A stretch of 24,840 bases of DNA from Thermoflexus sp. (GTDB lineage Bacteria > Chloroflexota > Anaerolineae > B4-G1 > DUEL01), in contig JAPYWT010000001.1 of NCBI GenBank assembly GCA_028276215.1, forward strand, positions 1 to 24,840, read 5' to 3'. Below the pieces are notes generated by a model. It was not told the DNA's origin. It did no database searches and saw only the letters and a list, made by a program, of their open reading frames with translations. Shown one piece after another: positions 3,006 through 21,649 of the stretch (positions within the stretch are counted from its first letter, which is position 1; each line of letters begins with the position of its first letter). A program made the translations under genes and the position numbers.

Positions 3006-3359
3006 TCACCGACGGACACGATATTTGTTACGGTCAATGATGACCAACGTTTTCTCCATCGCCTCCTGATCCACAATGTCCAGAAAGCGAATCAATACAT
3101 CGTGTACCTGTTCCAGAGTGCGAGGTCTTATTTTCAGTACAACGACTCCCAAATGCCGCTCCGTAGGGAAAAGCAGCGTGTTGCTGAAATGCATATCGTT
3201 AGTTATGAGGATGCGACCTTCAGCCACCGCGTGCGCCAGAACTTCATCGTCAGATTTTCCTGCAAACCCGGCTTCCTGTACGGTAAGCACATCATGGCCG
3301 TAAGCCCGGAGCATCTGAACCGTTATGCGGTAAACGCACTCATCAGCCAGGAATTTCAT
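3006..3359 (-). CDS. DUF5615 family PIN-like protein (VapC45-type toxin)
   Basis: MKFLADECV...GHDV...G.SDDEVLAHA..EGRILITNDMHF pattern with the acidic PIN residues. Its start overlaps the DUF433 stop (ATGA). Confidence 0.85.
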   Translation of the reverse strand: MKFLADECVYRITVQMLRAYGHDVLTVQEAGFAGKSDDEVLAHAVAEGRILITNDMHFSNTLLFPTERHLGVVVLKIRPRTLEQVHDVLIRFLDIVDQEAMEKTLVIIDRNKYRVRR

Positions 3360-3595
3360 ACGGCTACTGCTTCCTCGGCAAAGTAAACCTCTTCACCCTC
3401 AATTAGCGACCTGGCATATTCTATACAAGCCCGAATATCTGCTACGGTCAGGGTGGGATAATAATCCCTCAGAATCTCATCAAAGGAGAGCCCATCTTCC
3501 AGCAGTTCCAGTACCATCGTTACCGGTATTCTCGTGCCCTTAATGCAGGGCTTTCCCCCACAGATTTTCGGGTCAACGGAAATTCTTTCAAACAT
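3356..3595 (-). CDS. DUF433 family protein (VapB45-type antitoxin), 79 aa
   Basis: RISVDPKICGGKPCIKGTRIPV..VLELL..G.S..EIL..YPTL...DIRAC..YA signature. ATG at 3595 overlaps the flavodoxin stop. Confidence 0.9.
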   Translation of the reverse strand: MFERISVDPKICGGKPCIKGTRIPVTMVLELLEDGLSFDEILRDYYPTLTVADIRACIEYARSLIEGEEVYFAEEAVAV

Positions 3596-4119
3596 CACTC
3601 CTCCTCCGCCATACGATCCCTCAGCACCCCCGCCACCTCCCGCGCCCAGGCGCGAATGGCCTCCCAGTCGCGGTGGTCTCCCTCCGGCACCTTCATCCTC
3701 TGGATGATGAACCGTTCCCCGAACGACAACCGGCTGTAGTCCATCTTCCCGGCGAAAAGGCCCACGCGGACCGGTTCCAGCAGGGCCAGCGCGGGCTCCA
3801 TCCACGATTCCACCAACCGGCGATTCTCCTCCGTATCCTCCATCAGGGCTATACAGACTGCGAAGTACGCGACGGGGATGCGTCTCAGCGCTTCGCGGTG
3901 CCGCCGAAGAAACCTCACCGCCTCCGGCATCCAGCGAAAGGCCCGAATCGGAGCCCCCAGGACCACCGCCCAGTAGGGGTTCACATCGGCCACTTCTCGG
4001 GCCCGGCGAAGGTCCACATCCAGACCTTCCTGGCGGAGCGTCTCCGCAACGGCCTGCGCCACCTCGCCGGTAGACCCGGCCCGGGTCGCGTAGGCAACCA
4101 GAACTTTCTCACTCATCAT
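3595..4119 (-). CDS. Flavodoxin-domain protein (Flavodoxin_5/HemG-like fold)
   Basis: VLVAYATRAGSTGEVA FMN-phosphate loop, VVLGAPI, VAYFAV, FAGKMD and a C-terminal DHRDWEAIRAWA. ATGA overlap with the coaBC stop. Confidence 0.85.
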   Translation of the reverse strand: MMSEKVLVAYATRAGSTGEVAQAVAETLRQEGLDVDLRRAREVADVNPYWAVVLGAPIRAFRWMPEAVRFLRRHREALRRIPVAYFAVCIALMEDTEENRRLVESWMEPALALLEPVRVGLFAGKMDYSRLSFGERFIIQRMKVPEGDHRDWEAIRAWAREVAGVLRDRMAEEE

Positions 4120-5354
4120 CCCTCCTTCTTCACCAGCATCCGCGTGACCCGGTCCAGCACCGTCTCGGCGACGGCGGCCTTGCTCATCAGCGGCAACTCC
4201 TCCACCCCACCCTCCCGGTCCAGGAGCACCACCCGGTTGGTCTCGGCGGCGAAGCCCGCGTCGGCCGCGGTGATGTCGTTGGCGACGATGAGGTCCAGTC
4301 GCTTGGCCTCCAACTTGGCGCGGGCGTTTTCCAGCAGGTCCTGGCTCTCGGCGGCGAACCCCACCACCACCTGCGGCCTTCCTGTGTCGGCCCGCTGCCG
4401 GGCCACCGCCGCCAGAATGTCCGGCGTCCGTTCCAGGCGCAGGGTCAGGTCGGCCGTCTTCTTGATCTTGTGTTCGGAGACGGTCGCCGGACGGTAGTCG
4501 CCGACGGCGGCGGCCATCAGCAGGGCATCAGCGTCGGCGGCATCTTCCAGGACCGCATCCAGCATCTGCTGGACCGTGGTGACGTCCACCCGGCGGGCCC
4601 CCACGGGAGTGGGCAGGGAGACCGGGCCGGTAATCAGGGTGACCTCCGCCCCCCGGTCCAGCGCCGCCTGGGCCAGAGCGAAGCCCTGTTTGCCCGAAGA
4701 GGGGTTGGAGATGAAGCGGACGGGGTCCAGAAACTCGCGCGTCGGCCCGGCGGTGACCACGACCTTCCGCCCGGCGAGGGGGCCCTGGCGGCCCAGTACC
4801 CACCGGATGTGGCCCAGAATCTCCTCCGGCTCCATCATCCGCCCCTCCCCCTCCAGGCCGGAAGCCATCCGGCCCCGGACGGGTCCGGCGAAGTGGACCC
4901 CGCGCGCCCGCAGGGTGGCGACGTTGGCCTGAGTGGCCGGGTGGCCACACATCCCGGCGTCCATAGCCGGTGCCAGCAGAACCGGACAGGTCGCCGCCAG
5001 GGCCAGGGTGGAGAGGAGATTGTCCGCCAGGCCCCCGGCCAGTTTGGCCATCGTGTTGGCCGTCGCCGGGGCGATGACCAGCAGGTCGGCGGCGTGGGCC
5101 AGCCCGACGTGCGCGATGTGGGTGGGCAATCCAGCCCCGCCGGTATGCCAGAGGTCGGTGTAGACCGGTCGGCCCGTCAGCGCCTCAAAGGTCAGGGGGG
5201 AGACGAAGCGGGTCGCCGCCTCGGTCATCACCACGTCCACCTCCGCCCCCATCTGGGTCAGGTGGCTGGCCAGGGTGCAGACTTTGTAGACGGCGATGCC
5301 GCCGGTGACGCCCAGGAGAATGCGCTTCCCGCGCAGCAGAGGGACGAGTTCCAT
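4116..5354 (-). CDS. coaBC: Bifunctional phosphopantothenoylcysteine decarboxylase / phosphopantothenate-cysteine ligase (412 aa)
   Basis: CoaC domain: [33 protein letters not shown]. CoaB domain: [57 protein letters not shown] 5354 has an AAAGGGA SD. Confidence 0.95.
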
Positions 5355-5384
5355 GTTGCTCCCTTTACCAACAGGGCTCAAATA

Positions 5385-5798
5385 CCGGCCTGACGGCCGA
5401 CGCTAAATGCGCCGACTGAAGTCGCCCTCCCAGGGCCTTTGGCCGACGGTCGGCCTGCGCCGACCGCCATCCGCAAACCGGCCTGGCGGCCGGCGCTACA
5501 CGTGGCGTAGGCTGTCAGCCTGCGACAGGCCCGGCGGCCGGCGCTGAGTGCGCCGACTGAAGTCGCCCTCCCAGGGCCTTTGGCCGACGGTCGGCCTTCG
5601 CCGACCGTCGTTTTCAACCGGCCCTGTAGCGGAGGCGGTCAGCCTGCAACCAGCCTGACGGCCGGCGCTCGTGCCGACTGAAGTCGCCCTTCCAGGGCCT
5701 TTGGCCAACGGTCGGCCTGCGCCGACCGTCGTTTTCAACCGGCCCTGTAGCACAGGCAGTCAGCCTGCAACCGGCCTGACGGCCAGCGCTACACGGCC
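5385..5798. repeat. Modular palindromic (REP/BIME-like) repeat array
   Basis: Three ~56-bp near-identical cores GCCGACTGAAGTCGCCCT(C/T)CCAGGGCCTTTGGCC(G/A)ACGGTCGGCCT(G/T)CGCCGACCG start at 5411, 5552 and 5673. Five degenerate CCGGCC-N4-GGCCGG-CGCT units start near 5385, 5478, 5526, 5649 and 5771. Three AGGC-NGTCA-GCCTGC units occur, two of them preceded by TGTAGC. Confidence 0.9.
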
Positions 5799-5808
5799 TT
5801 CCCGTAGA

Positions 5809-5836
5809 ATTGTATCGCAAATTGAGCAAATGGCAA
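5809..5836 (-). promoter_or_regulatory. Putative sigma70 promoter for the coaBC operon
   Basis: Minus strand reads TTGCCA (5836-5831), 16 nt, TACAAT (5814-5809), pointing through the repeat array toward coaBC. Confidence 0.55.
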
Positions 5837-6000
5837 CTGCTGCCGATAAATCGTGTAAATCCTGTCACTCACTGGAAACGGGACAGTAACCAAAGCGAAA
5901 CCTACGGAAAGGTTGTATGTGATATTATCATGGCGAAAAAAATCCCTCGGGGTAGTAAGGCATCTCTTGCCCAATCGGACTTTCACCATCAGGAGGGAAT

Positions 6001-6240
6001 ATGGTCTCTACCGTTACTACATCTACCGTTATGACCGTGACAACTGTGGCGGTCGCCAGTTCGCTGGCCCTGATCGTTGTGATGACGATGTTCACCCTGC
6101 TGGTTCAGAAGGAAGTTGCTATCAATGCCCGGGAGCGCTGGATGCGTGCCCTGGACCGGGCATTGAACGTCGGCGTTATTCCCTTGCTGATAGCATTTCT
6201 GGCACTGGTCGCGATGCGAATCGCAGAGCTTCTCAAATAA
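6001..6240 (+). CDS. Small (79 aa) Ser/Thr-rich two-TM membrane protein of unknown function
   Basis: AGGAGG SD at 5991-5996. Nine of the first 15 residues are S/T. Two hydrophobic segments flank a basic loop. It sits alone in an otherwise non-coding gap and is followed by a hairpin. Confidence 0.8.
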   Translation: MVSTVTTSTVMTVTTVAVASSLALIVVMTMFTLLVQKEVAINARERWMRALDRALNVGVIPLLIAFLALVAMRIAELLK

Positions 6241-6254
6241 CCCGTCAGGGCAAG

Positions 6255-6288
6255 ATTCCTGTTGCGGCGGAACCGCTGCAACAGGAAT
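6255..6288. terminator. Hairpin between convergent genes (probable terminator or 3'-end stabiliser)
   Basis: ATTCCTGTTGCGGCGG-AA-CCGCTGCAACAGGAAT forms a 16-bp stem with one G.U pair. No clear U-tract on either strand. Confidence 0.45.
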
Positions 6289-6354
6289 TGGCTTCGCTGG
6301 CAGCCCCACCATCTCTTGCGGATTGCCGCGGACACTTCTTCTCTTCTATCAGGC

Positions 6355-7398
6355 TCACAGAAACGGTGCTATCAGAAAAAGCCAGATATTGATGAAGCCG
6401 TGGGTCAGCGAGACCCCCACAATGGACCGGGTGCGCTGGACGAGCCAGCCAAATAACAGCGCCACGCCGAAGACGAAGAAGACATCGGTCAGGGAGCGGT
6501 GGCCAGTGTGCAGGGCAGCGAAGATTGCCGAAACGTAAACCAACCCCCATTTCCCCATTGTCTCTATTGCCACCTGCTGCATAACTCCCCGAAAAATCAA
6601 CTCCTCAACCAGACCAGTAGAAACCAGTAAAATCAAAGCCGCCGTTAGAAATTCCCCCAGATTCCACCCCGAAATCAGCGGCACCGGCCGCAGAATCCAG
6701 TATTCCAGCATCCCCAATGGCAAGCCCAGAAATGGCATCATTATCTGCAGCGTGAGTCCCCGCCCGTGGAGGCCCACCTGATCCCAGGGCATTCGCAATA
6801 TCAGGCGTCTCACAATGAAAGTGGCGACATAGAGAGGTACACTGATGATGAGATACCAGTACATCAAGGGAACGGATCGCAGTGGAAGAGAAAGGCTTAC
6901 CAGACGGATCAGTGGTGCCAGACTCACTCCCGTCCAGAAACGATAGGCAGGTCGGTCACAACATCGAGCGCCGTACACCAGAGCACCAGTTAGAAGAAGG
7001 CTGTGCAAGAGCAAACCCAACCGGGGCTCTACCAGAGCAGTCAGGATCTCCGCCACCATTAGCAAAAGTAGATACCCCAGGGCAGGGAGCCAGAAGGTTT
7101 CCCATCTTTCCTTATCTATGGAAGTTGCCCTTTCCAGCGGAGACCAGGAAGGCCCCTGCCCCAACGCCTCCAGTTCCCGCCGGGCCAGCGCGTTGCGGCG
7201 GTTGAGGCTCAGCGTCTGATAAAGACAGAACCGCCGTTCCTCCACTGTTTCCACCGCCTGAGCCAGCCAGTACCATGCCCGCTCTGAATCCGAATGAGCC
7301 CGGACCACCCCCTCAAGAAGCCCGCGGGCCCGGTCCCGCTGACCGGACCGAAGGGCCCTCACTGCTTTTTGGATTCGCCAGTCTGGACCGCCCTTCAT
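6355..7398 (-). CDS. CPBP (CAAX/Abi, Rce1-like) intramembrane glutamic protease with N-terminal TPR-like domain (347 aa)
   Basis: EELIFRG (EExxxR), FAALH (FxxxH) and HGFIN (HxxxN) motifs. The N-terminal helical module reads ALRSGQRDRARGLL...AWYWLA...RFCL. ATG 7398 overlaps the DUF1616 stop. Confidence 0.9.
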   Translation of the reverse strand: MKGGPDWRIQKAVRALRSGQRDRARGLLEGVVRAHSDSERAWYWLAQAVETVEERRFCLYQTLSLNRRNALARRELEALGQGPSWSPLERATSIDKERWETFWLPALGYLLLLMVAEILTALVEPRLGLLLHSLLLTGALVYGARCCDRPAYRFWTGVSLAPLIRLVSLSLPLRSVPLMYWYLIISVPLYVATFIVRRLILRMPWDQVGLHGRGLTLQIMMPFLGLPLGMLEYWILRPVPLISGWNLGEFLTAALILLVSTGLVEELIFRGVMQQVAIETMGKWGLVYVSAIFAALHTGHRSLTDVFFVFGVALLFGWLVQRTRSIVGVSLTHGFINIWLFLIAPFL

Positions 7399-8240
7399 TC
7401 TTCCACCCTCAGCCACAGCCACAGTGTCCGGTAGGGAACAGGCAGACCGTTCCGATACAGGAAAAACTGCACTCGAACGGGGTCGCCAGGCCGAGCCGGA
7501 GTGAAGGAGACAGGACCTTCGTAGGCTGCACCCGGACCCAAACGGACCGGTCCGGCCTGGCCCAGCAGATGATCATCGTCCACTACCTCCAGACGATAAT
7601 CCACCGTTGTCTCTTCTCCGTTCACAATCCCGACGGTAACGGTCATTGGTTCACCCACTACGCTCCAGTGGGGATAGCCCACCGCCAGTCCCCCAGGGCC
7701 TGAAAGGTAAAACTCGGTGACCGGTTCGCCCGTTCCAGCAAGACGGATGACCATCAGCAAAAGGAGCAGGTCCAGAGCCAGAATCCCCATCAGCCCCCCG
7801 TATAGCCAGGAGCGACGACGAAACCCGAACGGGTTCGCGAAGTCAGCCCAGGGTATGGCCCACTCCCAACGGTCTTCCGGTGGCAAGGAGTACCAGCGCA
7901 CCCAGGCCAAAACGGTTGCCAGAAGAGTTATCCCAACCACTGCACCAACGACAGATGCCAGGTGAATCCCCCAAGGCAGTTGGTCCAGAATCAATGCCAG
8001 CAGAGGGACCAATGCCAGACTGATGCCTAACGAAAGGGCCAGCCGCTCAGCGCCGTCTAAGGCGTTCCGCCGGGGGAAAAGGGCAGCCTGCAGCACATAT
8101 CCGGGGCAGAAAAGAATCAGCGTCATCCCCAGCAACAGGCGCACCGCAGCCAGCGGAATCGGCAGCGCTTCGCCCGGTACCGTCAAAAGGATCAGCAATA
8201 CAGACAACAGAACAATTAAAATAAAAGAGTTCCGAACCAC
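7395..8240 (-). CDS. DUF1616 domain membrane protein
   Basis: LFCPGY.L.AALFP....LD..ERLALSLG.S.A..PL TM block, followed by an EFYL.G..G....YP....G....V.VGIVN.E soluble domain. GTG start with an AGGAG SD. Confidence 0.75.
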   Translation of the reverse strand: MVRNSFILIVLLSVLLILLTVPGEALPIPLAAVRLLLGMTLILFCPGYVLQAALFPRRNALDGAERLALSLGISLALVPLLALILDQLPWGIHLASVVGAVVGITLLATVLAWVRWYSLPPEDRWEWAIPWADFANPFGFRRRSWLYGGLMGILALDLLLLLMVIRLAGTGEPVTEFYLSGPGGLAVGYPHWSVVGEPMTVTVGIVNGEETTVDYRLEVVDDDHLLGQAGPVRLGPGAAYEGPVSFTPARPGDPVRVQFFLYRNGLPVPYRTLWLWLRVEE

Positions 8241-8258: not shown

Positions 8259-9425
8259 CTACGCAAAGCAGGCGAATTTCGGCCCATCCCCACCATCATG
8301 GCCGCGCTGCGAAATCTCCCGATACACCTCTACAGTCTCCTCCGCTGTCCGCTCCCAGGTAAAGGCACGGGCCCGCTCCAGGCCCCGGGCCCGCAGTTCC
8401 TCCCGCAGACGAGCGTCGGTTAGGGCCCGGTACATCGCTTCCGCCCATCCCTCCTCATCCAAGGGGGACACCCGCAGGGCCGCGTCTCCGGCAACCTCCG
8501 GCAGGGATGCCGCGTCCGAGCAGACGACGGGCGTCCCGCAGGCCATTGCCTCCAGAACGGGCAGGCCAAACCCCTCGTAGAGCGAAGGGAAGACAAAGAG
8601 CGCCGCGCGGTTGTAGAAGAGAACCAGGTCCCCGTCCGGGATGGCGGAGAGATGGAGCACGGCGTCCCCCAGGCCCAGTTCCTGAATCTGTTGCTCAAGA
8701 ACACAAGCCTGGGAAAGATACTGAACCGCGCCGACCCGGATGAGCCGGACATCGGGCATATCTTGGTGCAGGCGTGCAAAGGCCCGCAGCAGAAAGGGCA
8801 GGTTCTTACGTGGGTTCTCCGAACCCACATATAACACATACCGGTAGCGGCTATCCAGACCATAACGGGCATCAAAATCAGGCGGGACCGGGCGGGGATG
8901 GAAAACAGCATGATCCACGCCCAGAGGGATCACCCATATCCGCTCCACCGGATACCCAAGAGCCTGGACAACCATCTCCCGCGTACAGGCTGAATCGGCA
9001 ATCAGAGCATCCGCCAGACAAAGCGCGCGCGTCGCCAGTACATCCAACCACTCCTCCCAGCGGCTCCTGTATGCCCGCATACCCCGGTCGCGACGGGTCA
9101 GGTAGGGAACGATGTCGTGGACGGTCACCACGACCGGATGCAGGTCCGGTCGGAACCACAGGAGCATTGCCATCTGCTGGGCGGTCAGATGGGCCAGGAC
9201 ACCGGGTTTCAGTTCCGCCGCCAGCGGATAGGTGGTGAAGAACGTCCGGACGTCCCGCCCCAGGGGCCGCAACAGGCAGTGAGCGACCTGCACAGGCCAG
9301 GGATAGCGCGGAGTCACCAGGCGGAACAGAACGCCCACCCGCTCCAGAGCCTTACAGAGCGAAGCAGTGTAGCGGGCCAGGCCTATCTGATGGCCATACG
9401 GGCGCACCAGCAACTGGACTCTCAA
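8259..9425 (-). CDS. GT4 family glycosyltransferase (388 aa)
   Basis: VTVHD, LYVGSENPRKN, and FPSLYEGFGLPVLEAMACG (EX7E). TTG start at 9425 follows AAAGGAGG. Confidence 0.92.
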   Translation of the reverse strand: MRVQLLVRPYGHQIGLARYTASLCKALERVGVLFRLVTPRYPWPVQVAHCLLRPLGRDVRTFFTTYPLAAELKPGVLAHLTAQQMAMLLWFRPDLHPVVVTVHDIVPYLTRRDRGMRAYRSRWEEWLDVLATRALCLADALIADSACTREMVVQALGYPVERIWVIPLGVDHAVFHPRPVPPDFDARYGLDSRYRYVLYVGSENPRKNLPFLLRAFARLHQDMPDVRLIRVGAVQYLSQACVLEQQIQELGLGDAVLHLSAIPDGDLVLFYNRAALFVFPSLYEGFGLPVLEAMACGTPVVCSDAASLPEVAGDAALRVSPLDEEGWAEAMYRALTDARLREELRARGLERARAFTWERTAEETVEVYREISQRGHDGGDGPKFACFA

Positions 9426-9507
9426 ATCTCCTCCTTTGCGGAACGCAAGAGAAATGTTTCCACATAGCACATAGCACTTCGCAGTGCTGTATTTGCTGTC
9501 CCTTTCG

Positions 9508-10575
9508 TCAAGAAACTTTTGACGACTTACCTAACAGGGTCATGGCCACATGCCAGTTTAGGCAGAAGAGGGCCTCGCAGAGCGCCACCAACTGCCGCCC
9601 CCCCCGTCCGCCGGTTATGACGCGGGGCGACAGGCGCCACTCCCGGGCGGCCAGGATGGTCGCGTCCCCCACCCTGCTTCCCCGCCGAGCCCTGGCGCGG
9701 AGTCGGGAGAGCGCCCGGCCGTGGGCCAGCAGCCAGATCCCCGCGCTGATTTTGGCGGAGAGCCCGGGCCACCCCCGGCCCAGCGCCAGCCCCCACTCCA
9801 TCAAGTCTGCCAGGAGCAAGCCCGGCCAAAGAAGCAGCAGAGCCTGCCAGCCCCAGTTGCACCACACCATCAGAATGCGGTTGCGGAAGGAACAGTACAG
9901 GGCCAGCGGCGATGGACGGTCCAGGCGGCCCGCGTGGTAAACGACCGACGCCGGAACATGCAAGCACCGGTATCCGGCCCGTCCGGCCCGCCAAGAGAGG
10001 TCTGTTTCTTCGTAGTACATATAGAACATATCGGTAAAGCCGCCCAGTTCCTCCCACACCTTCTGGCGGATGGCGAAGGCGGCGCCGGAGACGGCAGCGA
10101 CATCGGCGAAGGGCGCTCCAGTAACTGCCGCCCGCGAGGCGCCGAAGTTCCGGGCAAAGACCAGCCCCGTGTAGTGGACGTCCTGACCGCAGGACTGAAT
10201 CCGCTCCGGGTCGTCCATCCAGAGAATCGTGGGTGTGGTCAGACCCACTGTTGGGTCCCGGAACGGCTCCAGCAAGGCCTCCAGCCAGCCCGGTTCGGCG
10301 CGCACATCCTGGTTGAGGAACACCAGGAATTCTCCTCGCGCCTGATCCGCCCCCTGACGGCACGCGGCCGCGAAGCCCCGATTGGTCTCGTTGACCAGCA
10401 GGCGGGCCTCCGGCATCCGTGCCCGAACCAGGGCCGCGCTCCCGTCGGTGGAGCCGTTATCCACAACAATGACCTCAGTGGCGGCTGGAAGTGTCCGACG
10501 CAGGGAATCCAGACAGCCATCCAGGTAGGGCCGTCCGTTATAGACCACGATGATCAGGCTAACTATCGGCTCCAT
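9508..10575 (-). CDS. GT2 family glycosyltransferase (WbbL/RfbF-like)
   Basis: SLIIVVYN, VVDNGSTDGS, NRGFAAAC, VFLNQD, VSGAAFAIR and YYEETDLSWR motifs. Confidence 0.92.
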   Translation of the reverse strand: MEPIVSLIIVVYNGRPYLDGCLDSLRRTLPAATEVIVVDNGSTDGSAALVRARMPEARLLVNETNRGFAAACRQGADQARGEFLVFLNQDVRAEPGWLEALLEPFRDPTVGLTTPTILWMDDPERIQSCGQDVHYTGLVFARNFGASRAAVTGAPFADVAAVSGAAFAIRQKVWEELGGFTDMFYMYYEETDLSWRAGRAGYRCLHVPASVVYHAGRLDRPSPLALYCSFRNRILMVWCNWGWQALLLLWPGLLLADLMEWGLALGRGWPGLSAKISAGIWLLAHGRALSRLRARARRGSRVGDATILAAREWRLSPRVITGGRGGRQLVALCEALFCLNWHVAMTLLGKSSKVS

Positions 10576-10579
10576 ATCA

Positions 10580-12154
10580 CTACCGGCGATAAGGACTCCC
10601 AGACCGGGTGCGGTAGATGGCTGTGAAGCGATTGTCGTAAATCCGATTGCACGAAAAGACGTCCGGCAATTCGGCCCCCGTCCTCCAGGCCCGCAGGGTC
10701 ATGGTCTCGGAGAGAACGAAGTAGACAGTCTGGTCGTCAGGACGGCCCCACTTTGCCTGCAGGCGGCGGGCCTTCCAGAGGCTATCGGCCTCCGCCAGCG
10801 CTACCAGCCGCTCATCCACCCCCGTCCAGACCCACGCGGTTTCTCCGTGTTTCCCAAGCCACTCTATCGCCCGGCGCTCCTGGTCCGTATGAAAGACCCA
10901 GTTATGGCTCAGGAGCGGCTCGTTGGTTGCCTTCAGCAGAGAGGCCAGCGAGAAGACCATCGTCAGAATCACTATCCCGCCAGAGAGCAGAGAGCGCAGG
11001 GCCAGAGGCCCCCCGGAGACCCGGCGGGCCAGTCTCACCAGGGTTTCCGCTGCCAGGGGGATGGCCACTACCATCAGGTGGGGAAAAATCCGCACCTGCA
11101 TATTCGCTGAAAGCACCCCAGCCAAGTCCATGACCACGGAGATCGCCAGAAACAGACCGAAGCCCCCGTATAGCAACCACAGGAACAGTTGATTGGGAGA
11201 TATCTCCTCCCGTCCTTCCAGAATCCGCTTCGCCCGCAGAAGCCAGAAGCCGAAGGAGAGCAGAAGGACCAGCCAGTTGAAGAAAGTCAGCGCGATGTAG
11301 ACCCCCTCGCTGATCCACGCGGCCTGGACATATCGGTACGGGTTAGTCGCTACTTCCACTCCCAAAAGCAGCATCGCGATCTGGTCCGCGATGGAGCGCA
11401 GGATAGTAAGTTGACCTCCGGCTGGGGGATAGACGTGGTAGATAACCACATACAGAAGAACGGAACAGGAGAGGGTCACATAGAGCAAGCGCATCAGGGG
11501 AGACCATCTCCCCGCCTGCTGACGGCCCCACCGCCGCCACAGCCGCCACCCCAGGAACGAGCAGGCAATGGCGAAGAGATAACTGGACGCGAAGAAGGCA
11601 CTGCTGGTGGCCAGCCCGAAGGCAAAGAGGTAACTGAGGACTACCCATTTGCCGATGGGCCGTCCGGCTTCGGCTTCGCGGAAACTGACGGCAAGGGCAT
11701 GGAGCAGGCTCAATGCCAGCGCCCAGGTCAGTTTGGCGTGGCTGCTGCGCGCGGACTCAAAGAGAAACTCTGGCTGCAGAAACAGCATCAGAGAGGCTAT
11801 AATCGCTGTCTCCGGGCGTCCTGTCAGGTTTTGATAGGCGATGAAGGCCAGTGGGACCAGCAGGACCACCAGGAATGGCTGTACATAGACCTGCAGGGTG
11901 CGAATAGAGAGCCCGGTCAGGTGGGAAAGGAACGTATTGAGGGCCGGATAGCCGTAGCCGAAGGGATACGTCTCTGAGGGCACGATGGTCCCCTCAGCGT
12001 AGATAGCCTCCGCCGCGACGGTCAGCCGGGCATCGTCGGTGGACGTCCAGTTCCAGAGGAAACGCGCGCCGATGTACCCTGCCGCCAGAAGAACATACCC
12101 CGCCAGCAGGAAAAGGTACCAGCCTGTTGAATACCGGTTTGGGGCGTTCTTCAT
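10580..12154 (-). CDS. Polytopic membrane protein, GT-C-like glycosyltransferase candidate (524 aa)
   Basis: About 12 hydrophobic segments. An acidic STDD follows TM1, then YPFGYGYP. The soluble C-terminal domain starts 'QERRAIEWL' and ends 'NRIYDN...IY'. ATG 12154 overlaps the upstream stop. Confidence 0.65.
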   Translation of the reverse strand: MKNAPNRYSTGWYLFLLAGYVLLAAGYIGARFLWNWTSTDDARLTVAAEAIYAEGTIVPSETYPFGYGYPALNTFLSHLTGLSIRTLQVYVQPFLVVLLVPLAFIAYQNLTGRPETAIIASLMLFLQPEFLFESARSSHAKLTWALALSLLHALAVSFREAEAGRPIGKWVVLSYLFAFGLATSSAFFASSYLFAIACSFLGWRLWRRWGRQQAGRWSPLMRLLYVTLSCSVLLYVVIYHVYPPAGGQLTILRSIADQIAMLLLGVEVATNPYRYVQAAWISEGVYIALTFFNWLVLLLSFGFWLLRAKRILEGREEISPNQLFLWLLYGGFGLFLAISVVMDLAGVLSANMQVRIFPHLMVVAIPLAAETLVRLARRVSGGPLALRSLLSGGIVILTMVFSLASLLKATNEPLLSHNWVFHTDQERRAIEWLGKHGETAWVWTGVDERLVALAEADSLWKARRLQAKWGRPDDQTVYFVLSETMTLRAWRTGAELPDVFSCNRIYDNRFTAIYRTRSGSPYRR

Positions 12155-14715
12155 GAAGTCTCCCGCCACCAGAGGACAGTCAACCCGCCCGCCAGCAGGA
12201 TAATTCCAGCCAGCAGGCTCGCCACCACGGCCCGGACGCGAGGAGCAAGGGCCAGAAACGAGTAAACGTAGAGGGACGGCCTATGGGCGACATTCGCCTT
12301 GGTCATTCCCAGCAGGACCGGCCCTGTTTTCTCCTCCCCACAGCGGGCCATCACGGCGACGTTCCAGGTCCCCGCCGTGGACGGACGCCATCCCCAGAGG
12401 AGTTCCCGCTCTCCCTCTCCAGGGAGAACCGAGAGGGTCGTTGTCAGGACCCGCCGGGCGCCTCGCGGCCCTTCCAAGAGCACGCAGAGGGGAACCTGAC
12501 GGGCATCGTCCAGGCCGAAGTTGCGGAGAAGGGCCCGGATGGTGGCCTCCTCTCCCTCCCGCGTTGCCTCCACTTCCAGGGAGACCAACCCCAGCGCGGC
12601 CGGCGTCAGCGGGCGCACCGACCAGCGCCCATCCTCCCAGACAACCCGGTAGGCTCCCGGGGCCCTGGGGGGCGCAAAGCCCTCCACGCCGCTGGAAACC
12701 ACCTGCGCGCCCGGCCCGACATGCAGAATCAACCGGAACCCCCGACTGGTCACCTGCAGGTTCTGTACCACCGCACCGGTCATCCGCGTTTCGGGACCCT
12801 CCCAGCGGGCCAGAATCCCCCGCAGGTCATCGGCGGGCGCTGGAGCCGGAAACGACTCCAGCCGATCCTTCAGTGCCTGCCACTCGGCGAAGTTTCGGGG
12901 CGGAAGGGTGGAAAAGACCGCCAGGGCCACGTCCGCCCGCTTCAGAACCACCTCCCCGTCTCCGGCGTAGAGGAGAAACCCGGGCAACACGTTCAGTTGC
13001 CGCACGCGCCCATCGGGCGCCACGTACTCCCACTGGTCCAGATACCCATCCCGGTTCCGGTCCGCGTAACGGACGACAGCCCGCCCGTCCACGTTCCAGA
13101 CGCCGCCCTGCGCGCCAAAGAGGTGAAGGCGACCATCCACCGGGCTCCAGTAGAGCGTCGGGCGCCCCACCTGCTCTGTGGCATATTCACCCCGCATCCC
13201 CCGGCGGATGTCGGCGTAGTTCTCCAGCGGAGGCTCCTCTATCAGGCCGGTCAAATAGAGGTCCCGCAGGCCTGAGGGTTCTACCAGATGCCCATCCCGA
13301 AACCCCCGGTTGACGTTCCAATCTCCCATTCCCTCACTACTCCAGTACCCGCCGTTCTCTGCCACAACGAACGTCGCGATTGCCCAATCCCGGCCCATCA
13401 CCCAGTCTGGTATCCTGTCGTAGGGCACCGTCTGAACAGCGAAGTTCGGGAAAGCCACCACGTCGGTGACGGGATGGAAACCGGCCACGCTCACCTCATA
13501 ATCCCAGCGCCCGTCGTTGTTCTGATCCCAGGAGTAATCCGCCTGGACAAAAGGCCGGGTGAGCCCTCCCTGTTGCGCCACCTCGTGGGAAAAAGCGGAA
13601 TCCCCGGCTGCGAAGACCTCAAACCGGACCATCAGTTCGGGACGACCGTCGGAATCCCCGGCCAGGTCGTAATAGGCCATCGGGTTCTCAAAGTTGGCGT
13701 AGTTGACTTCCCCCTTCCGCCAGCGGGCCCAACTGTTGATATGGTATCCCTGCTCTGTGGGATAACCCAGTACCCCCACCCGGTCTATCTGGGCCCGGCC
13801 CCAATCTACGGCAATGACCGGTGGACGGTCAAAGTAGTTGTACGCCTCGTAGTCATGTTTTCCCACCAGCAGAGGCCAGAAAAGGGCATCCGCATATGGC
13901 TCCGGGTGGCGGGGCTTCCGGTTCACGTAGAGGGTGGACCGAAAGATGTTGGCATCCGGTGGGGAAAGGGCCAGCAGCCGCTGGAGTTGATAATCGGCGA
14001 TGCCGTCGCCATCCGCATCCACGACCTCCAGTTCCCAGTCTACCCCGCCGTCGGTTGTCGCGCCCTTGCGAGCCCACTCGGGAGCCGGAGCGGCCTCCCC
14101 CCACTCCAAGTAGCGCAGGATGTAGCCGTCTATGTGGAAGACCAGGGCCGGATTGACCCGACCGTTGGGCAGGAACCAGTCGGAGCGGGCCATCACCCGG
14201 ACGTGCCAGTGGGAGGATTCGGTTATCTCCACGGACCGGGGACGGGCCCGATAGGAGACCTGACCGTCGCCGTTCCGGTCATCGTAGAGGTAGGCGACCC
14301 GGTGCTCTCCTTCCTGAGCGAACACCAGGATCAGTTGCGCTGTCCCATCAGCGCCCACATCAAAAATCCAGACGTCGTCGCGGAAATCAGTAACAGCCAG
14401 GACATCTGACCCGGTCCCCATATTCCCGGCGCGATCCACGATCAGGATACGGTCGTGGGCCGAGGCGAAGGCACAGTCCACAACGGTCAGGTCCGGACGA
14501 CCGTCGCCGTCCAGGTCGGACTGGGTGACGCCGAAGACGGTGATGTCCGTCTGGGCCTGGACGGGCTCCGTGGGCAGGATCAGCGGGCCGAACAGCCCCA
14601 ACAGGGCCATCAGCCCTCCGAGTAACACCCGCACAGGAAATGGCGTTACTTTCATGGCTCGTCGTCGGCGAGAAAAGACGCGACTCCGCTTTGCTCCGTT
14701 GCCCATTGCCAGCAA
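12151..14715 (-). CDS. Large secreted, C-terminally membrane-anchored protein with multiple DxDxDG-type Ca-binding loops and a probable CARDB-like Ig domain (~854 aa)
   Basis: Signal peptide ends ...PVQA|Q. Loops include DLDGDG, DVGADG, DRNGDG, DADGDG, DSDG, DQNNDG and DRNRDG. C-terminal TM is followed by RETS. Start taken as TTG 14715 (AGGAG 8 nt upstream); alternatives are ATG 14706 and 14655. Confidence 0.8.
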   Translation of the reverse strand: MLAMGNGAKRSRVFSRRRRAMKVTPFPVRVLLGGLMALLGLFGPLILPTEPVQAQTDITVFGVTQSDLDGDGRPDLTVVDCAFASAHDRILIVDRAGNMGTGSDVLAVTDFRDDVWIFDVGADGTAQLILVFAQEGEHRVAYLYDDRNGDGQVSYRARPRSVEITESSHWHVRVMARSDWFLPNGRVNPALVFHIDGYILRYLEWGEAAPAPEWARKGATTDGGVDWELEVVDADGDGIADYQLQRLLALSPPDANIFRSTLYVNRKPRHPEPYADALFWPLLVGKHDYEAYNYFDRPPVIAVDWGRAQIDRVGVLGYPTEQGYHINSWARWRKGEVNYANFENPMAYYDLAGDSDGRPELMVRFEVFAAGDSAFSHEVAQQGGLTRPFVQADYSWDQNNDGRWDYEVSVAGFHPVTDVVAFPNFAVQTVPYDRIPDWVMGRDWAIATFVVAENGGYWSSEGMGDWNVNRGFRDGHLVEPSGLRDLYLTGLIEEPPLENYADIRRGMRGEYATEQVGRPTLYWSPVDGRLHLFGAQGGVWNVDGRAVVRYADRNRDGYLDQWEYVAPDGRVRQLNVLPGFLLYAGDGEVVLKRADVALAVFSTLPPRNFAEWQALKDRLESFPAPAPADDLRGILARWEGPETRMTGAVVQNLQVTSRGFRLILHVGPGAQVVSSGVEGFAPPRAPGAYRVVWEDGRWSVRPLTPAALGLVSLEVEATREGEEATIRALLRNFGLDDARQVPLCVLLEGPRGARRVLTTTLSVLPGEGERELLWGWRPSTAGTWNVAVMARCGEEKTGPVLLGMTKANVAHRPSLYVYSFLALAPRVRAVVASLLAGIILLAGGLTVLWWRETS

Positions 14716-14726
14716 AAATCCCTCTC

Positions 14727-16169
14727 CTAGCGCAAGAAAGGCGCCCGTGCTCCCTGACGTAATCCTTTCACAGGAATGATCCGGCTCTCTGTCAGGACGA
14801 CCAAGTAGGCAACCAGCGCGGGGGCCAGATAGGCAAGGGCAACAAGGCCTGTTGCCTCTCGGGCAGGCCAGAGGGCCAGCACCATCACCCCCACTGCCCC
14901 CAGGAAGGGAACCCAGAATCTCCGCCGCAGGGTAAGGGGCGGTTGTCCCAGGACGCGCTGGCTTAGCAGGGCTGATTGGACCACCTCCCGCGCCAGTACG
15001 GCTCCGGCGGCCCCAAAGGCTCCCCAACGGGGAACCAAGATAGTAGCGAGAGCAAAGGAAAGGATCAAAGACGCCGCTGTCGTGCGGGCAATTGTTCCCT
15101 GTTCTCCTCGCGCAATCAATACCTGCCAGAAATAGGCGTTCAGAAACACGGCTATGGTTCCCACGCCCAGTACTCGCAGAATGGGCGCTGCGGACAGAAA
15201 GGAAGTGCCATAGAGCAAAGCCATTAGGAAAGGGGAGAGCAGGCTCATCGTCACTCCGATTCCGATTCCGGGGACAAGCATCCATAGCAATCCCTGGTCA
15301 CGCAGGCGTGCAAATGCTGCCTCATCCCGTTGTGCCAGGGAGGAAAGACGGGGCAGAAAAGCCGCTGCCATCAGGCTGACAGACCGGGAGAGCATCACCA
15401 GGCTGACAGCAGCGTTATACAATCCCACCTCCCGCGCGGGCTGGAAGAGAGAAAGGACCAGGGTATCCACCCGCATGTTCAGGCCGACAAGGGTGAAGGT
15501 TAACCCCAGAGGGAGGGCAGCGACGACCATATCTCGCGCCAGGTGAGCTTCCCAGCCGATGGGGCGGGCCAGCCGCCCCACCCATATTCCGGCGAGAATC
15601 AACGATAGAGCCTCGGCGCTCAGCATTGCCCACAGCGCCTTCTGGACCGAGGGGGAGAGAAGCAGGGCCAACCCCACCGCGATCAGCGCCAAGCCAGTCT
15701 CCAGCCCCTGGACGGCCGCGTCCAGTTCCATCCGCTCCAGGCCGCGCAGGACCGATCTGAAGAGACCGACCAGTCCCCGGATACCTGTGATGAGGGCTGC
15801 CGGAAGCAGGAGCGCGCGGACCTCCCGCGAATACCCCATGGCTGTGCCTGCGCCGAGGATCAGCAGGACCAGAACCGGGAGCCAGAGCAGAGCGGGGATC
15901 AGAGCACTGAGAGTTACGCGCCCGGCCCAGCCAGGATTCCGGGCAACCTCCCTGGGAACGATGCTATCCAGGCCCATAAGGGCCGTGTAGGTGAATGCCA
16001 TAGCCAGGGAAAAGGCGATCGCGTAGAGGCCGTATTCGTGCGGTCCGACCACCCGGGCCAGCAACAGCCCCGTCGCTGCCGCCAGGACCTGGGCCACCAG
16101 GTTTCCCACCAGGAGCCAGAGCATGTTGCGCAACAACCCTTGCTGGCCCACAACTGGCGCACTCTCCAC
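14727..16169 (-). CDS. wzx: Wzx-type polysaccharide/oligosaccharide flippase (PST/MOP family, 480 aa)
   Basis: RNMLWLL...LARVVGPHEYGLY, GLD..VPREVA, RVDTLVLS....EVGLYNAA, FLPRLS and LYG..F..AAPILRVL patterns over about 12-14 TM segments. GTG start at 16169. Confidence 0.9.
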   Translation of the reverse strand: MESAPVVGQQGLLRNMLWLLVGNLVAQVLAAATGLLLARVVGPHEYGLYAIAFSLAMAFTYTALMGLDSIVPREVARNPGWAGRVTLSALIPALLWLPVLVLLILGAGTAMGYSREVRALLLPAALITGIRGLVGLFRSVLRGLERMELDAAVQGLETGLALIAVGLALLLSPSVQKALWAMLSAEALSLILAGIWVGRLARPIGWEAHLARDMVVAALPLGLTFTLVGLNMRVDTLVLSLFQPAREVGLYNAAVSLVMLSRSVSLMAAAFLPRLSSLAQRDEAAFARLRDQGLLWMLVPGIGIGVTMSLLSPFLMALLYGTSFLSAAPILRVLGVGTIAVFLNAYFWQVLIARGEQGTIARTTAASLILSFALATILVPRWGAFGAAGAVLAREVVQSALLSQRVLGQPPLTLRRRFWVPFLGAVGVMVLALWPAREATGLVALAYLAPALVAYLVVLTESRIIPVKGLRQGARAPFLR

Positions 16170-16170
16170 C

Positions 16171-17388
16171 TCACCACCTCCACCGTCGCCCGGGGAGCAG
16201 GGACTCCAGCAGTCCCCATACGTTCGCGGCCCAGCCAGCAACCATATAGGGAAGGAACAGACCGTACTGCCACCAGTGGGAAAGACGGGCCGCGCCCTGG
16301 GCCCAGGCTGCCCCGGTGAAACGAGCCTGACTGAAGACCAGGTGGGCCAGCGAGGCCAGCCAGAGGGCCCAGAGAAGACGGCTCCCCAGACCGCCCACCA
16401 GCGGGATTGCCAGCATACCCAACGAGGTCAGCGCAGCCCAGAGGTGCCCGCCGACTTCTCGCCAGCGCTGGTGCCGAAAGCCATAGAGAAAGCGGTTGCG
16501 GAACCACCGGGAACGCTGGCGCAGGTATTCTCCCAACGTGGTGCAGTACGCCGTCCGCACGCGGCTTTCCGGGATGAAGTGGATCCGGTATCCGGCATCC
16601 CGCAACTGCCGGGAGAGCGCGTAGTCGGTGCCGATGGGGGCCGGCACGGACACCCCTCCTACCCTCTCCAGCACATCCCGCCGGACCACCGCGTTGACGC
16701 CGTCCAGCGTATCCACGTACACCGGCGCAACGGCCTGCATCCAGAGGTGGTGGGACCACTGGAACGCGACCAGAGGGTGGGATTTCTGCCTGTCCAGAGG
16801 CTGGCGGGTTCCCGTTGTCGCCACCTCTTCCCCCTCCAGGATGGGCCGGAGCGTCTGCTCAAAAGTCTCATCGTCCAGCACACAGTCGGCATCGGTCAGG
16901 AAGATGACGGAGCCGGTAGCATGCTCCAGACATCGCTGGAGCGCGCGCTGTTTCCCTTCGCCGGACCGCTGTTCCAAGATGACCGCGCCGGGGGGCGCAA
17001 AGCACCGGGCCAGTTCCAGCGTCTCGTCTGTGCCCCCCGCGCAGATAACCAGTTCCAGGTCCGGGTAGCGCAGGTTGCCGATCGCCGTCAGGCAATCCCC
17101 GATGTACTCCGCTTCGTCCCAGGCCGGGAGCAGGATGCTTACCCGGGGCAGGTTCCCCTTCGTGAATGAGGGAGACTGATCTCCCTGATGACTACACGAA
17201 ACAACCTGGGGTGAGAAGACATCCGCAACGTGCCAGGCCCTTTGAGAGGTGCCTGACACGTTGCCTCGCCACCGTCGCCACAGATAGAGGTTCAGCAGCG
17301 CGGCCAGGCAGACCCCGCCCGCCAGAACCCACCCAGCGTGGGCCTCCCCCCAGAGCCACAGGACGCGCAGTACGGCGATCACAGGCAT
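16171..17388 (-). CDS. Membrane-embedded GT2 glycosyltransferase with QxxRW motif (405 aa)
   Basis: N-terminal TM, VSILLPAWDE, FLTDAD (DxD), GTDY, QRSRW and C-terminal TMs. ATG 17388 with a GAGG SD. Confidence 0.88.
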   Translation of the reverse strand: MPVIAVLRVLWLWGEAHAGWVLAGGVCLAALLNLYLWRRWRGNVSGTSQRAWHVADVFSPQVVSCSHQGDQSPSFTKGNLPRVSILLPAWDEAEYIGDCLTAIGNLRYPDLELVICAGGTDETLELARCFAPPGAVILEQRSGEGKQRALQRCLEHATGSVIFLTDADCVLDDETFEQTLRPILEGEEVATTGTRQPLDRQKSHPLVAFQWSHHLWMQAVAPVYVDTLDGVNAVVRRDVLERVGGVSVPAPIGTDYALSRQLRDAGYRIHFIPESRVRTAYCTTLGEYLRQRSRWFRNRFLYGFRHQRWREVGGHLWAALTSLGMLAIPLVGGLGSRLLWALWLASLAHLVFSQARFTGAAWAQGAARLSHWWQYGLFLPYMVAGWAANVWGLLESLLPGRRWRW

Positions 17389-18731
17389 GAAACACCTCTC
17401 TGTTGCCCACTGCTGGGAATAAGTCTCGCCCAGGGAGCTCCCTTTTCCCACCAGTAGCGCCACCCACTTTCCCAGCGAATCTCCAGCGCCGTCGCCGTCT
17501 CCCGGTAGAGGCACCGCTCACCCCGAAAGAGGCAGTCCATCTCCAACTCCGGCGGCATCTGGGCGATGGGGAGATGGTCGCCAGCCTGAACCGCTCCAGC
17601 AAGGTAGCGGAACGCTTTGTCGGCCCAACCGCAGACCGGCAGCAGGTCCCGCAAATCCGGGCCGCACGTGGGGCGCCAGGTCTCCATCGCTCCGAATCCA
17701 TGAGCCGTCGCGATCCCCCCGTGGAGTTGCCGCCCCCTTAATAGCCACGACTGAGTGGGCTCCAAATTCACGTCCATCCCGCACCTGCGGACCTCTTCCA
17801 TCGCCCGCAGAATGTCCCCCACGCCAGCAATCCACCGGGGATAACCGCTCACCCGCCCGTTTCGGTAGACGACCTGCGGGAAGGAACCATCAGGAAGGCG
17901 AAAACGCAGGATGAAAGCCACGGCCCGGAACGCCGCATCCCGGTATGTCTTCTGCCCGGTCTGCTCGCATCCCCGGAGAAGGGCCGGAACGCAGCGGGCG
18001 ATGTAAAAGGGGAAATACCGGCCCGATGCCTTCTGACCCAGCACGCCCTGCTCAATCGCCCCATCCAGCGGAGAGCCAGAAGCCTGGACCTGAGCCTCCA
18101 GAATGGCGTCCAGAGACGGGAGAACGTACCGGTCCACCACGTCCCTCTCCCCGGTCAGGTCAGCCCAGGCCAGCAGCGCCTCGGCAATCGTCGCCGCTTT
18201 GTTGGGGACGAAGGTCGGGTCCGCCGGAAGGTTGCGGAACCGCCGGGCGCTCTCATCCCAGAGGACGGAGAGGATGTAGCCCCAGAGGTTGCGCCGGGCC
18301 GCCTCCGCCATCGTTTCCCAGATCGGGTCTCCCCGCTCCCGCAGGATCTGCGCCAGACGCAGCAGTGCCAGATCGCAGGCTGCCTCGTGGGGGGTGCCGC
18401 CGGTTCCCGGATTGGCCTCAAAACAGGAATGGCGGAAATTCCCGGAAGGGAGTTGCCCCTGGAGCAGGTCTATGCCGGCCCGACGGGCCCGGTCCAGCCA
18501 GCGCTCGTCGCCAGTGTTCCGGTACAGTTTCAGGTACCCCAGGATAATCCCCTCGTAGCGCCAGTCCAGACCGGGGCCAGTGTAGAGGAGATTGTCCTGC
18601 CACCAGTGGACCACTGGTCCTCCGTAGCCGCCGGGGCCGCGCATAGTTTCCAGCCAGGCCTCCAGCCGGAGCGCCGCAAAGGCCAGGACCTGCCGGGAAA
18701 CACCCCCGTCTTCGGGATAGCCCCCCTTCAT
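17379..18731 (-). CDS. Cytoplasmic (alpha/alpha)6-barrel-like protein (six-hairpin glycosidase / prenyltransferase-repeat-like, 450 aa)
   Basis: Repeated helix + QxxxG motifs (DERWLDRARRAG..LLQGQLPSGNF; YRDAAFRAVAFILRFRLPDGSF). No signal peptide. ATG 18731 overlaps the upstream stop and has GGAGG. Confidence 0.6.
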   Translation of the reverse strand: MKGGYPEDGGVSRQVLAFAALRLEAWLETMRGPGGYGGPVVHWWQDNLLYTGPGLDWRYEGIILGYLKLYRNTGDERWLDRARRAGIDLLQGQLPSGNFRHSCFEANPGTGGTPHEAACDLALLRLAQILRERGDPIWETMAEAARRNLWGYILSVLWDESARRFRNLPADPTFVPNKAATIAEALLAWADLTGERDVVDRYVLPSLDAILEAQVQASGSPLDGAIEQGVLGQKASGRYFPFYIARCVPALLRGCEQTGQKTYRDAAFRAVAFILRFRLPDGSFPQVVYRNGRVSGYPRWIAGVGDILRAMEEVRRCGMDVNLEPTQSWLLRGRQLHGGIATAHGFGAMETWRPTCGPDLRDLLPVCGWADKAFRYLAGAVQAGDHLPIAQMPPELEMDCLFRGERCLYRETATALEIRWESGWRYWWEKGAPWARLIPSSGQQRGVSCL

Positions 18732-20523: not shown

Positions 20524-20527
20524 CCTC

Positions 20528-21565: not shown

Positions 21566-21586
21566 ATCCCTCCCAGGGAAGGATTC

Positions 21587-21611
21587 GGGCGGGCAGCAAA
21601 GCCGCCCGCCC
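21587..21611. repeat. Intergenic GC-rich hairpin sharing its core with the 22844-22876 hairpin
   Basis: GGGCGGGCAGC-AAA-GCCGCCCGCCC. The single A.C mismatch becomes a G.U pair in the minus-strand transcript. Confidence 0.6.
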
Positions 21612-21649
21612 TTACATGTTCAACCTCCCCTGCGTCGTTAAAGTATCCA

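Follow-up and report, generated by a model that had tools for sequence, protein, structure and literature searches.

A conserved two-helix microprotein paired with a CPBP/Rce1-like intramembrane protease across Chloroflexota

Introduction

The window analysed here, a 24,840-nucleotide (nt) stretch of DNA from Thermoflexus sp. (Chloroflexota, Anaerolineae), contains a small forward-strand gene (6001-6240) for a Thr-rich microprotein of 79 amino acids (aa), which converges with a reverse-strand gene (6355-7422) for a CPBP/Rce1-like glutamic intramembrane protease. Prokaryotic proteases of this type are very widespread, while substrates are known for only a handful (PMC11980579). The question raised by the locus is what so small a protein does beside such an enzyme. 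A preliminary description, made from the DNA letters, took the microprotein to be a candidate pilin-like or sheath subunit with a surface-exposed Thr-rich tail and linked it functionally to the convergent protease. The link is borne out by (i) co-occurrence of the two genes, (ii) their adjacency across the phylum, (iii) a complex model with clean controls and (iv) co-variation of the tail with catalytic residues of the protease. The role is read differently: the microprotein is most likely a dedicated substrate or plug of the CPBP protease, not a pilin or sheath subunit.

The microprotein gene and its family

The features of the microprotein gene (P0001) and its immediate flanks include:

5991-5996 (+): Shine-Dalgarno sequence AGGAGG, 4 nt 5' of the ATG, read directly from the sequence
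6001-6240 (+): microprotein coding sequence P0001, 79 aa, based on in-frame conservation, third-position substitutions and family membership
6001-6048 (+): uncharged Thr/Val-rich N-terminal tail, residues 1-16, based on alignments, substitution counts, the predicted interface and co-variation
6046-6105 (+): hydrophobic helix 1, about residues 16-35, followed by a conserved QKE, based on hydropathy and alignment, with one face in the predicted interface
6106-6168 (+): basic loop, residues 36-56 (K37, R44, R46, R49 and R53), presumably cytoplasmic, based on sequence and the positive-inside rule
6169-6216 (+): hydrophobic helix 2, about residues 57-72, with a conserved P61-L-L-x-A-F66, based on alignments and the interface list
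6255-6288 (no strand): hairpin with a 16-bp perfect stem and a 2-nt loop (inverted repeat, 94% complementary), between the convergent genes

This is a genuine gene that evolves under purifying selection. Its open reading frame (ORF) is kept in frame, with a Shine-Dalgarno sequence, in 11 of 60 relatives, and a GGAGG-type site occupies the same place in the orthologues. The ATG at 6001 is unique, with no further in-frame start upstream, and this unique ATG is kept in the relatives. Differences among 10 orthologues number 644, 216 and 1591 at the first, second and third codon positions, and codons 1-16 show 341 synonymous vs. 56 non-synonymous codon differences; thus, the Thr-rich tail is the most strongly protein-constrained part of the microprotein. 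Two overlapping ORFs, 5989-6312 (-) and 5913-6392 (+), were considered and set aside, as neither keeps its length in relatives and the substitutions follow the pattern expected of the 6001 frame.

The strong Shine-Dalgarno sequence, the Ser/Thr content of the N-terminus and the two hydrophobic helices flanking a basic loop can all be read in the sequence as first described. Residues 1-15, MVSTVTTSTVMTVTT, include seven Thr, two Ser and no charged residues; hydropathy (Kyte-Doolittle) is maximal near residues 20-30 and 62-68, and Cys is absent from the entire protein. The 15-bp-period duplication that was also reported has a more limited meaning. An exact 10-nt repeat, TCTACCGTTA, is present at 6007-6016 and 6022-6031, and an exact repeat of this length within 30 nt arises in 18 of 2000 codon shuffles. 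The exact DNA repeat is, however, found only in this genome, the two copies matching at 6-9 of 10 positions in nine relatives; therefore, it is the periodicity of the peptide (STVTT/STVxT) that is conserved and not a duplication of the DNA.

Four metatranscriptome libraries from hot-spring mats yield contigs over the gene, although such contigs cannot prove transcription or rank expression. Two of the RNA-library contigs span roughly 5920/5937 to 6319/6369 and end just past the 6255-6288 hairpin, which is likely a bidirectional terminator. Rfam returns no match on 5300-6500. Within 6001-7422, the guanine-plus-cytosine (GC) content is 0.54 for the microprotein gene and 0.57 for the CPBP gene, compared to 0.62 for the whole window; coaBC, at 0.70, lies above both (third-position GC of 0.89 vs. 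0.65).

The microprotein has no match in Pfam-A, NCBIfam or PADLOC, and yet belongs to a large family. A word-indexed search finds 78 clusters, the majority of exactly 79 aa, and a profile search of 1.84 billion representatives finds 1394 clusters (50% identity) at E <= 1e-3 and 382 at E <= 1e-10, with homologues of 74-86 aa in almost all of the 150 clusters listed. The best-conserved part of the family is residues 1-10, M[VI]STVTT[ST]TV, which are nearly invariant at an overall identity of about 40%; the QKE after helix 1 and the P-L-L-x-A-F in helix 2 are likewise nearly invariant. The Dehalococcoides variant of the tail is MIVTVTSVTTAT. The microprotein is encoded in one copy per genome, and the motif [ST]T[VIL]TT[STA]T[VIL] occurs nowhere else in a six-frame translation of this 72.6%-complete genome.

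The partner protease

The gene that converges on the microprotein includes the following features:

6355-7422 (-): CPBP/Rce1-like glutamic intramembrane protease, 355 aa, based on Pfam, motifs and fold
7252-7377 (-): N-terminal TPR, residues 16-57
6358-7110 (-): nine-helix core, residues 105-355, which carries the catalytic motifs

The protein matches Pfam PF02517 with 57.5 bits (cut-off 22.4), and it carries E240 and the catalytic motifs E273-E274-LIF-R278 (EExxxR), F301-AAL-H305 (FxxxH) and H341-GFI-N345 (HxxxN). The EExxxR, FxxxH and HxxxN motifs are invariant in one alignment of the subfamily (A2) and invariant or nearly so in another (A4); the protease is thus under selection for activity. 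The AlphaFold2 model of the core has a pLDDT of 95. When searched with Foldseek, the top Protein Data Bank (PDB) match of this model is SpdC (6u0o_A, probability 1.00, TM-score 0.51), with MmRce1 (4cad) also matched (probability 0.94-0.97, TM-score 0.44-0.48); no PDB match has E <= 0.001. Compared to the Mrt equivalogs, the protein scores best with MrtJ (43.6 bits, cut-off 75) and reaches 32.9 bits with Mrt_core (cut-off 100), neither cut-off being passed. The partner is a distinct CPBP/Rce1-like subfamily.

Three relatives have an interrupted CPBP gene (G245:C11:170622-171364, G012:C117:561-1625 and G564:C75:1168-1968). G245 and G564 each give a match divided between two frames, and the G012 gene has an in-frame TGA; either assembly errors or decay could be the cause.

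Co-occurrence and adjacency of the pair

The microprotein and the CPBP core co-occur and adjoin across the Chloroflexota. Among 61 related genomes, the two are present in exactly the same 12, and the remaining matches of the CPBP search are to the TPR part only. In a class sample of 301 genomes, the microprotein profile is found in 21 and the CPBP-subfamily profile in 20, with 19 shared; the three mismatches are all weak matches. In 17 of the 19 shared genomes, the genes lie within about 1 kilobase (kb) of one another and are mostly convergent. Within the class sample, the pair is same-strand in G204, divergent in G132 and split over different small contigs in G186; L024 and L025, too, have both genes on one strand. 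The G204 genes were examined as a possible natural fusion, which is ruled out, as their reading frames differ and the two genes form an overlapping operon.

Beyond the class, all five microprotein-positive genomes among the further phylum genomes tested also carry the CPBP, and the pair reaches other Chloroflexota classes, including Dehalococcoides mccartyi (CAI82905.1 / WP_011309256.1), in which the two genes converge with overlapping 3' ends. The pairing is also seen around distant metagenomic members (L015, L018, L024 and L025), where all other neighbours vary, and the CPBP adjoins the microprotein in almost every lineage with enough flank. At L021/L022 (P0344), no CPBP is found within the 3-kb contig, and the CPBP profile gives no match with a 131-aa fragment encoded downstream; this is either an uninformative case or a true exception.

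In D. mccartyi (L045, genome G380, 3875-7138), the CPBP gene overlaps the end of a gene of the M50 (site-2 protease) family, in one operon. A geranylgeranyl-reductase-like oxidoreductase that uses flavin adenine dinucleotide (FAD) is divergent beside the D. mccartyi microprotein, and a similar oxidoreductase is located 3' of the microprotein in L025.

Small hydrophobic peptides encoded beside CPBP/Abi proteins invite comparison with bacteriocins, as CPBP/Abi proteins are known immunity or processing factors in that setting. A membrane-active, bacteriocin- or toxin-like microprotein with the CPBP/Abi protein as its immunity or neutralising factor would also fit a convergent arrangement, which could permit antisense control. 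However, the microprotein has no double-glycine or other leader, no C39/ABC exporter is found among the Pfam-tested ORFs of the window, and PADLOC returns no matches. The sequence is nearly invariant across the phylum instead of diversifying, and the pair is retained, with a single microprotein copy per genome, in the streamlined 1.4-Mb genomes of Dehalococcoides. A bacteriocin-like function is, thus, very unlikely.

Predicted complex and membrane topology

A complex was folded from the CPBP core (alignment A4) and the microprotein (alignment A3), together with three controls. The complex has an ipSAE of 0.83 (0.82-0.84 in three runs), compared to 0.00 for the best control; 58 of 80 solved complexes reach this mark, as do 2 of 110 mismatched pairs, a benchmark that is rough here, as custom alignments were used. 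On the microprotein side, the confident interface takes in residues 1-11 in full, together with a single face of each of the two helices, with no predicted contact for residues 37-46. On the CPBP side, helices 2-4, which are specific to the subfamily, take part, as do the following residues (fragment numbering): E136, T165, G166, E169, F197, L200-R205, D209, H237, N241 and F244. Fragment residues E136, E169, H201, H237 and N241 correspond to E240, E273, H305, H341 and N345 of the full-length protein, all of which are in the interface. Fragment residues 170-196 and 214-236, which form the cytoplasmic loops of the core, do not appear in the interface list. As read from these residue lists, the tail appears to lie at the catalytic pocket.

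The membrane orientation of the pair is likewise deduced from the residue lists. If the TPR is taken as cytoplasmic and the positive-inside rule is applied, the nine-helix CPBP would have its N-terminus inside; the basic loops of both proteins would then be on the same side of the membrane, and it is through the outer face that the tail would reach the cavity. A two-helix microprotein with its basic loop inside and its N-terminus outside is the topology that best suits the data, in agreement with the preliminary description.

Co-variation of the tail with catalytic residues

A table of 28 microprotein-CPBP pairs shows the tail motif changing together with catalytic residues of the CPBP. Where E240 (in GxxEYxIL) and H305 (FxxLH) are intact, a Thr/Val-rich tail is present in 22 of 22 pairs, the Dehalococcoides pair included, and is uncharged in all except L024, which has one Asp at residue 11 (21/22). 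Where E240 is replaced (G204, G132, G186, G233, G603 and G358), the tail is degenerate in every case (6/6) and has charged residues in five of the six; H305 is also replaced in five of these six pairs, by M, Q, Q, F or Y. Four of the E240-loss pairs are from the class sample and fall in at least three families. The degenerate pairs still keep the hairpin and the rest of the CPBP. Both co-varying residues, E240 and H305, are within the predicted interface. In addition, two genomes (G075 and G161) have distant microprotein-like genes that are without a CPBP and are also without the tail motif. The pattern is strong but is not a formal statistic, as the genomes are related and the cases are not all independent.

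Substrate or regulatory subunit

We favour a reading of the substrate type, in which the microprotein is a two-helix hairpin that acts as a 1:1 partner of the CPBP and engages its active site through the tail, and place its probability at roughly 0.5. The two helices of the microprotein would dock on the subfamily-specific N-terminal helices of the CPBP, and the uncharged, beta-prone tail (M-V-S-T-V-T-T-S-T-V) would enter the membrane-embedded catalytic cavity from the outer face to lie against E240, E273, H305, H341 and N345. Most likely, the protease would then clip the tail close to its N-terminus, in the way that Rce1 takes a tripeptide off a protein end, with the hairpin staying bound after the clipping. 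Such cleavage by the CPBP is favoured because the catalytic residues of the partner are under selection and the tail decays upon their loss.

Several points weigh against this reading. The cleavage is a prediction, and the placement of the tail in the pocket is based on interface residue lists and not on contact pairs. Conservation peaks at residues 1-10 and not near the membrane boundary, which suits a bound plug equally well. The degenerate pairs keep the hairpin with an inactive CPBP, so some role of the complex would be independent of catalysis. The score of the complex could lean on memory of SpdC-type complexes, and the relatedness of genomes noted above reduces the number of independent cases of co-variation.

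The same observations suit a stable regulatory subunit, in which the tail would be a pseudo-substrate plug or gate, or a shaper of the binding site, and the real substrates would be other molecules (e.g., lipid-linked intermediates or proteins of the envelope). Contact between helices is predicted over an extensive interface in which the subfamily-specific helices take part, the genomic stoichiometry is 1:1, and the family is strict in length (74-86 aa). The whole 10-residue stretch from Met1 is nearly invariant, which is beyond the usual needs of a cleavage site, while the hairpin persists beside CPBPs that lack catalytic residues; moreover, non-catalytic complexes of a CPBP with a partner are known (e.g., SagB-SpdC, 6u0o). 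However, no alternative candidate substrate is identified, the decay of the tail upon loss of catalysis suits a substrate equally well, and the known dedicated pairs of a CPBP and its neighbour are enzyme-substrate pairs (PMC11980579). A stable regulatory subunit is, thus, a credible but doubtful alternative.

A more novel reading, which we advance tentatively as possible, is a CPBP system that acts on an N-terminus, in which a cargo-less microprotein threads its invariant Thr-rich tail from the outer face into an intramembrane active site, where the tail is clipped or serves as a gate. This would be a previously undescribed kind of CPBP system.

Neighbouring genes and the surface-polymer alternative

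Upstream of the CPBP gene on the reverse strand are a third conserved gene and a set of glycan genes:

7395-8240 (-): DUF1616 membrane protein with five transmembrane helices and a C-terminal beta-sandwich, based on PF07760, a model and co-occurrence
8259-22687 (-): glycosyltransferase (GT) 4, GT2, GT-C-like p529, p1044, Wzx-like flippase, GT2, two unknowns, GT4, GT2 and GT2, based on Pfam and ESM-atlas

The DUF1616 protein matches PF07760 with 176.1 bits (cut-off 31.6) and is the third conserved member of the module in class Anaerolineae. The full-length form is found in 17 of the 19 pair-positive genomes of the class and in none of the remaining class genomes, so that the co-occurrence with DUF1616 proposed at the outset holds within Anaerolineae; the gene is directly upstream of the CPBP in 12 class genomes. 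Other Anaerolineae have only the first 120 or so residues of DUF1616, fused within proteins of 650-1100 aa. The model has five transmembrane helices and an immunoglobulin (Ig)-like beta-sandwich, for which a fold search gives only generic Ig-like beta-sandwich matches. The sole literature mention of the family found is a Haloferax member listed as an N-glycoprotein (PMC8241124). The presence of DUF1616 at first hinted at an archaeal source for the window, an idea set aside because the genome is a hot-spring metagenome-assembled genome of the Chloroflexota (Anaerolineae/Thermoflexales).

Parts of the glycan gene set recur beside the pair in G242, G191, L024 and L012. By contrast, glycan genes are absent around the pair in L015, Dehalococcoides and several other lineages, and no glycosyltransferase is found within about 5 kb of the pair in D. 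mccartyi and other lineages. The linkage is, therefore, hierarchical, with the CPBP linked phylum-wide, DUF1616 in most Anaerolineae and glycan genes in some lineages only; an expected linkage of microprotein homologues to CPBP and glycosyltransferase loci holds in its first part across the phylum and in its second part for some lineages.

This distribution bears on the proposal that the microprotein is an abundant pilin- or sheath-like surface polymer, O-glycosylated on its Thr-rich N-terminus by the GT-C-like neighbour and matured by the CPBP. The tail is Ser/Thr-rich and probably on the outer face, the pair ends a glycan operon (GT2, GT4, Wzx and GT-C-like) in this genus and some Anaerolineae, and the gene is covered by the RNA-library contigs. 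Yet the pair stands without a glycosyltransferase nearby in D. mccartyi and elsewhere, as described above, and the microprotein has no pilin match in Pfam or NCBIfam and a single copy per genome, and the Pfam-tested ORFs of the window include none for a pilus, a sortase or type IV secretion. In the model, the tail is predicted to be enclosed by the protease, which would leave no room for a glycan and does not fit the surface exposure first assumed for it. The near-invariance of the tail also argues for a specific protein pocket over a loose glycosylation tract. A surface polymer is, thus, very unlikely.

The glycan gene set includes two large proteins of note. One, p529 (10580-12169, -), is a 529-aa polytopic membrane protein with no Pfam match even at E <= 5. 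Its ESM-atlas features point with 0.99 to clusters labelled RgtA/B/C/D-like, PMT_2 and DUF2206, which are mostly archaeal; p529 is a candidate GT-C-like protein based on ESM features, without a hidden Markov model match. When compared to the 616-aa membrane protein that is located beside the distant microprotein-like gene of G075, p529 shows no similarity. The other, p1044 (12151-15285, -), is a 1044-aa ORF for a putatively secreted protein with a signal-peptide-like stretch, MKVTPFPVRVLLGG..., near residue 211, and its true start is probably internal, near this residue. The C-terminus of p1044 has a hydrophobic anchor followed by RETS, the only domain matches are weak ones to FG-GAP and EF-hand, and homologues accompany the pair in G242.

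Two further observations concern the part of the window at lower coordinates than the microprotein gene. The region 5384-5800 includes three tandem copies (5411-5528, 5552-5669 and 5673-5790) of a repeat of about 120 nt, in each of which there is a GC-rich palindrome (CGACGGTCGGCC...GGCCGACCGTCG). BLAST matches to the unit number 56, on 44 contigs of this fragmented genome. The unit also has the highest depth in the RNA-library contigs, where it is joined to other loci; it looks like a dispersed element of the repetitive extragenic palindromic (REP) or miniature inverted-repeat transposable element (MITE) type. The DUF433 ORF (3356-3805) and the flavodoxin-like ORF (3595-4119), both on the reverse strand, overlap by 210 nt as listed; as the DUF433 domain begins at residue 75, the true start of the DUF433 ORF is probably further downstream.

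Implications

If the tail does enter the active site, clipping would release a short uncharged peptide or prime the hairpin that remains; alternatively, the tail would gate the protease. In Anaerolineae, the addition of DUF1616 would make a three-part envelope module that is tied to glycan assembly, while in Dehalococcoides, the CPBP encoded after the M50 protease could be the first step of a two-protease cascade.

The pairing provides a whole CPBP subfamily with a genetically hard-wired partner, and the co-variation signature points to the enzyme residues that would recognise a particular part of this partner. It also adds a documented, conserved microprotein of a type that automated annotation labels 'hypothetical'. 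The proteomics of D. mccartyi has been studied extensively; as the pair is present in this cultured and proteomics-rich organism, N-terminal processing or stable binding of the microprotein is directly testable.

Comparison with known systems

The microprotein-CPBP pair was not found described in the literature searched (on CPBP, Chloroflexota, small membrane proteins and Dehalococcoides). Systems with which it shares features include (i) conjugative pilins, (ii) CPBP-fold proteins that hold a partner, (iii) Rce1, (iv) MroQ-AgrD and (v) the Mrt proteases.

The conjugative pilins TraA, TrbC and VirB2 are similar to the microprotein in size and in having two hydrophobic helices. The microprotein differs in that it matches none of these families, is encoded by a single chromosomal gene without transfer genes in its vicinity, and has the CPBP as its only conserved partner.

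In SagB-SpdC and Abx1/CflP-CovS, a CPBP fold holds a partner protein, and the degenerate pairs described here may work in this manner. The CPBP of the present pair, however, keeps its catalytic motifs in most lineages, and its partner is a dedicated microprotein and not an enzyme or kinase. Rce1 shares the catalytic motifs and fold; a protein terminus enters its cavity within the membrane, and a short peptide is trimmed off there. While Rce1 acts on a prenylated C-terminus, here it is the N-terminus that is proposed to enter, and no Cys is available for prenylation.

MroQ is cited as the protease suspected of processing the autoinducing peptide (PMC7387801). MroQ-AgrD of Staphylococcus aureus is an instance of a CPBP protease implicated in trimming the N-terminal part of a small membrane-associated precursor (PMC7387801, bioRxiv 10.1101/516906). 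By contrast, the system described here is without an AgrB-like partner or thiolactone chemistry, and the microprotein is a two-helix integral protein with a sequence that is invariant rather than allelic.

The pair also resembles the systems of MrtJ, MrtX, MrtC and MrtP, in which a CPBP protease is encoded beside a single dedicated target and the target has the order of motif, helix and basic residues that the microprotein shares (PMC11980579). MrtJ/JDVT-CTERM forms a two-gene neighbourhood of a CPBP protease and a single target, and cleavage by MrtX is shown experimentally (PMC11980579). The targets of the Mrt proteases carry a C-terminal signal, with an invariant Cys, on a secreted cargo; the microprotein, of 79 aa and without cargo, instead has its signal right at the N-terminus, with a second helix following, and its lack of an invariant Cys leaves no handle for lipidation. 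The partner CPBP is far below the Mrt cut-offs and has five extra N-terminal helices, which form the predicted docking surface. Thus, while a CPBP protease with a dedicated neighbouring target is already known, this pair, with its signal at the N-terminus and a microprotein that is without a curated family, is new.

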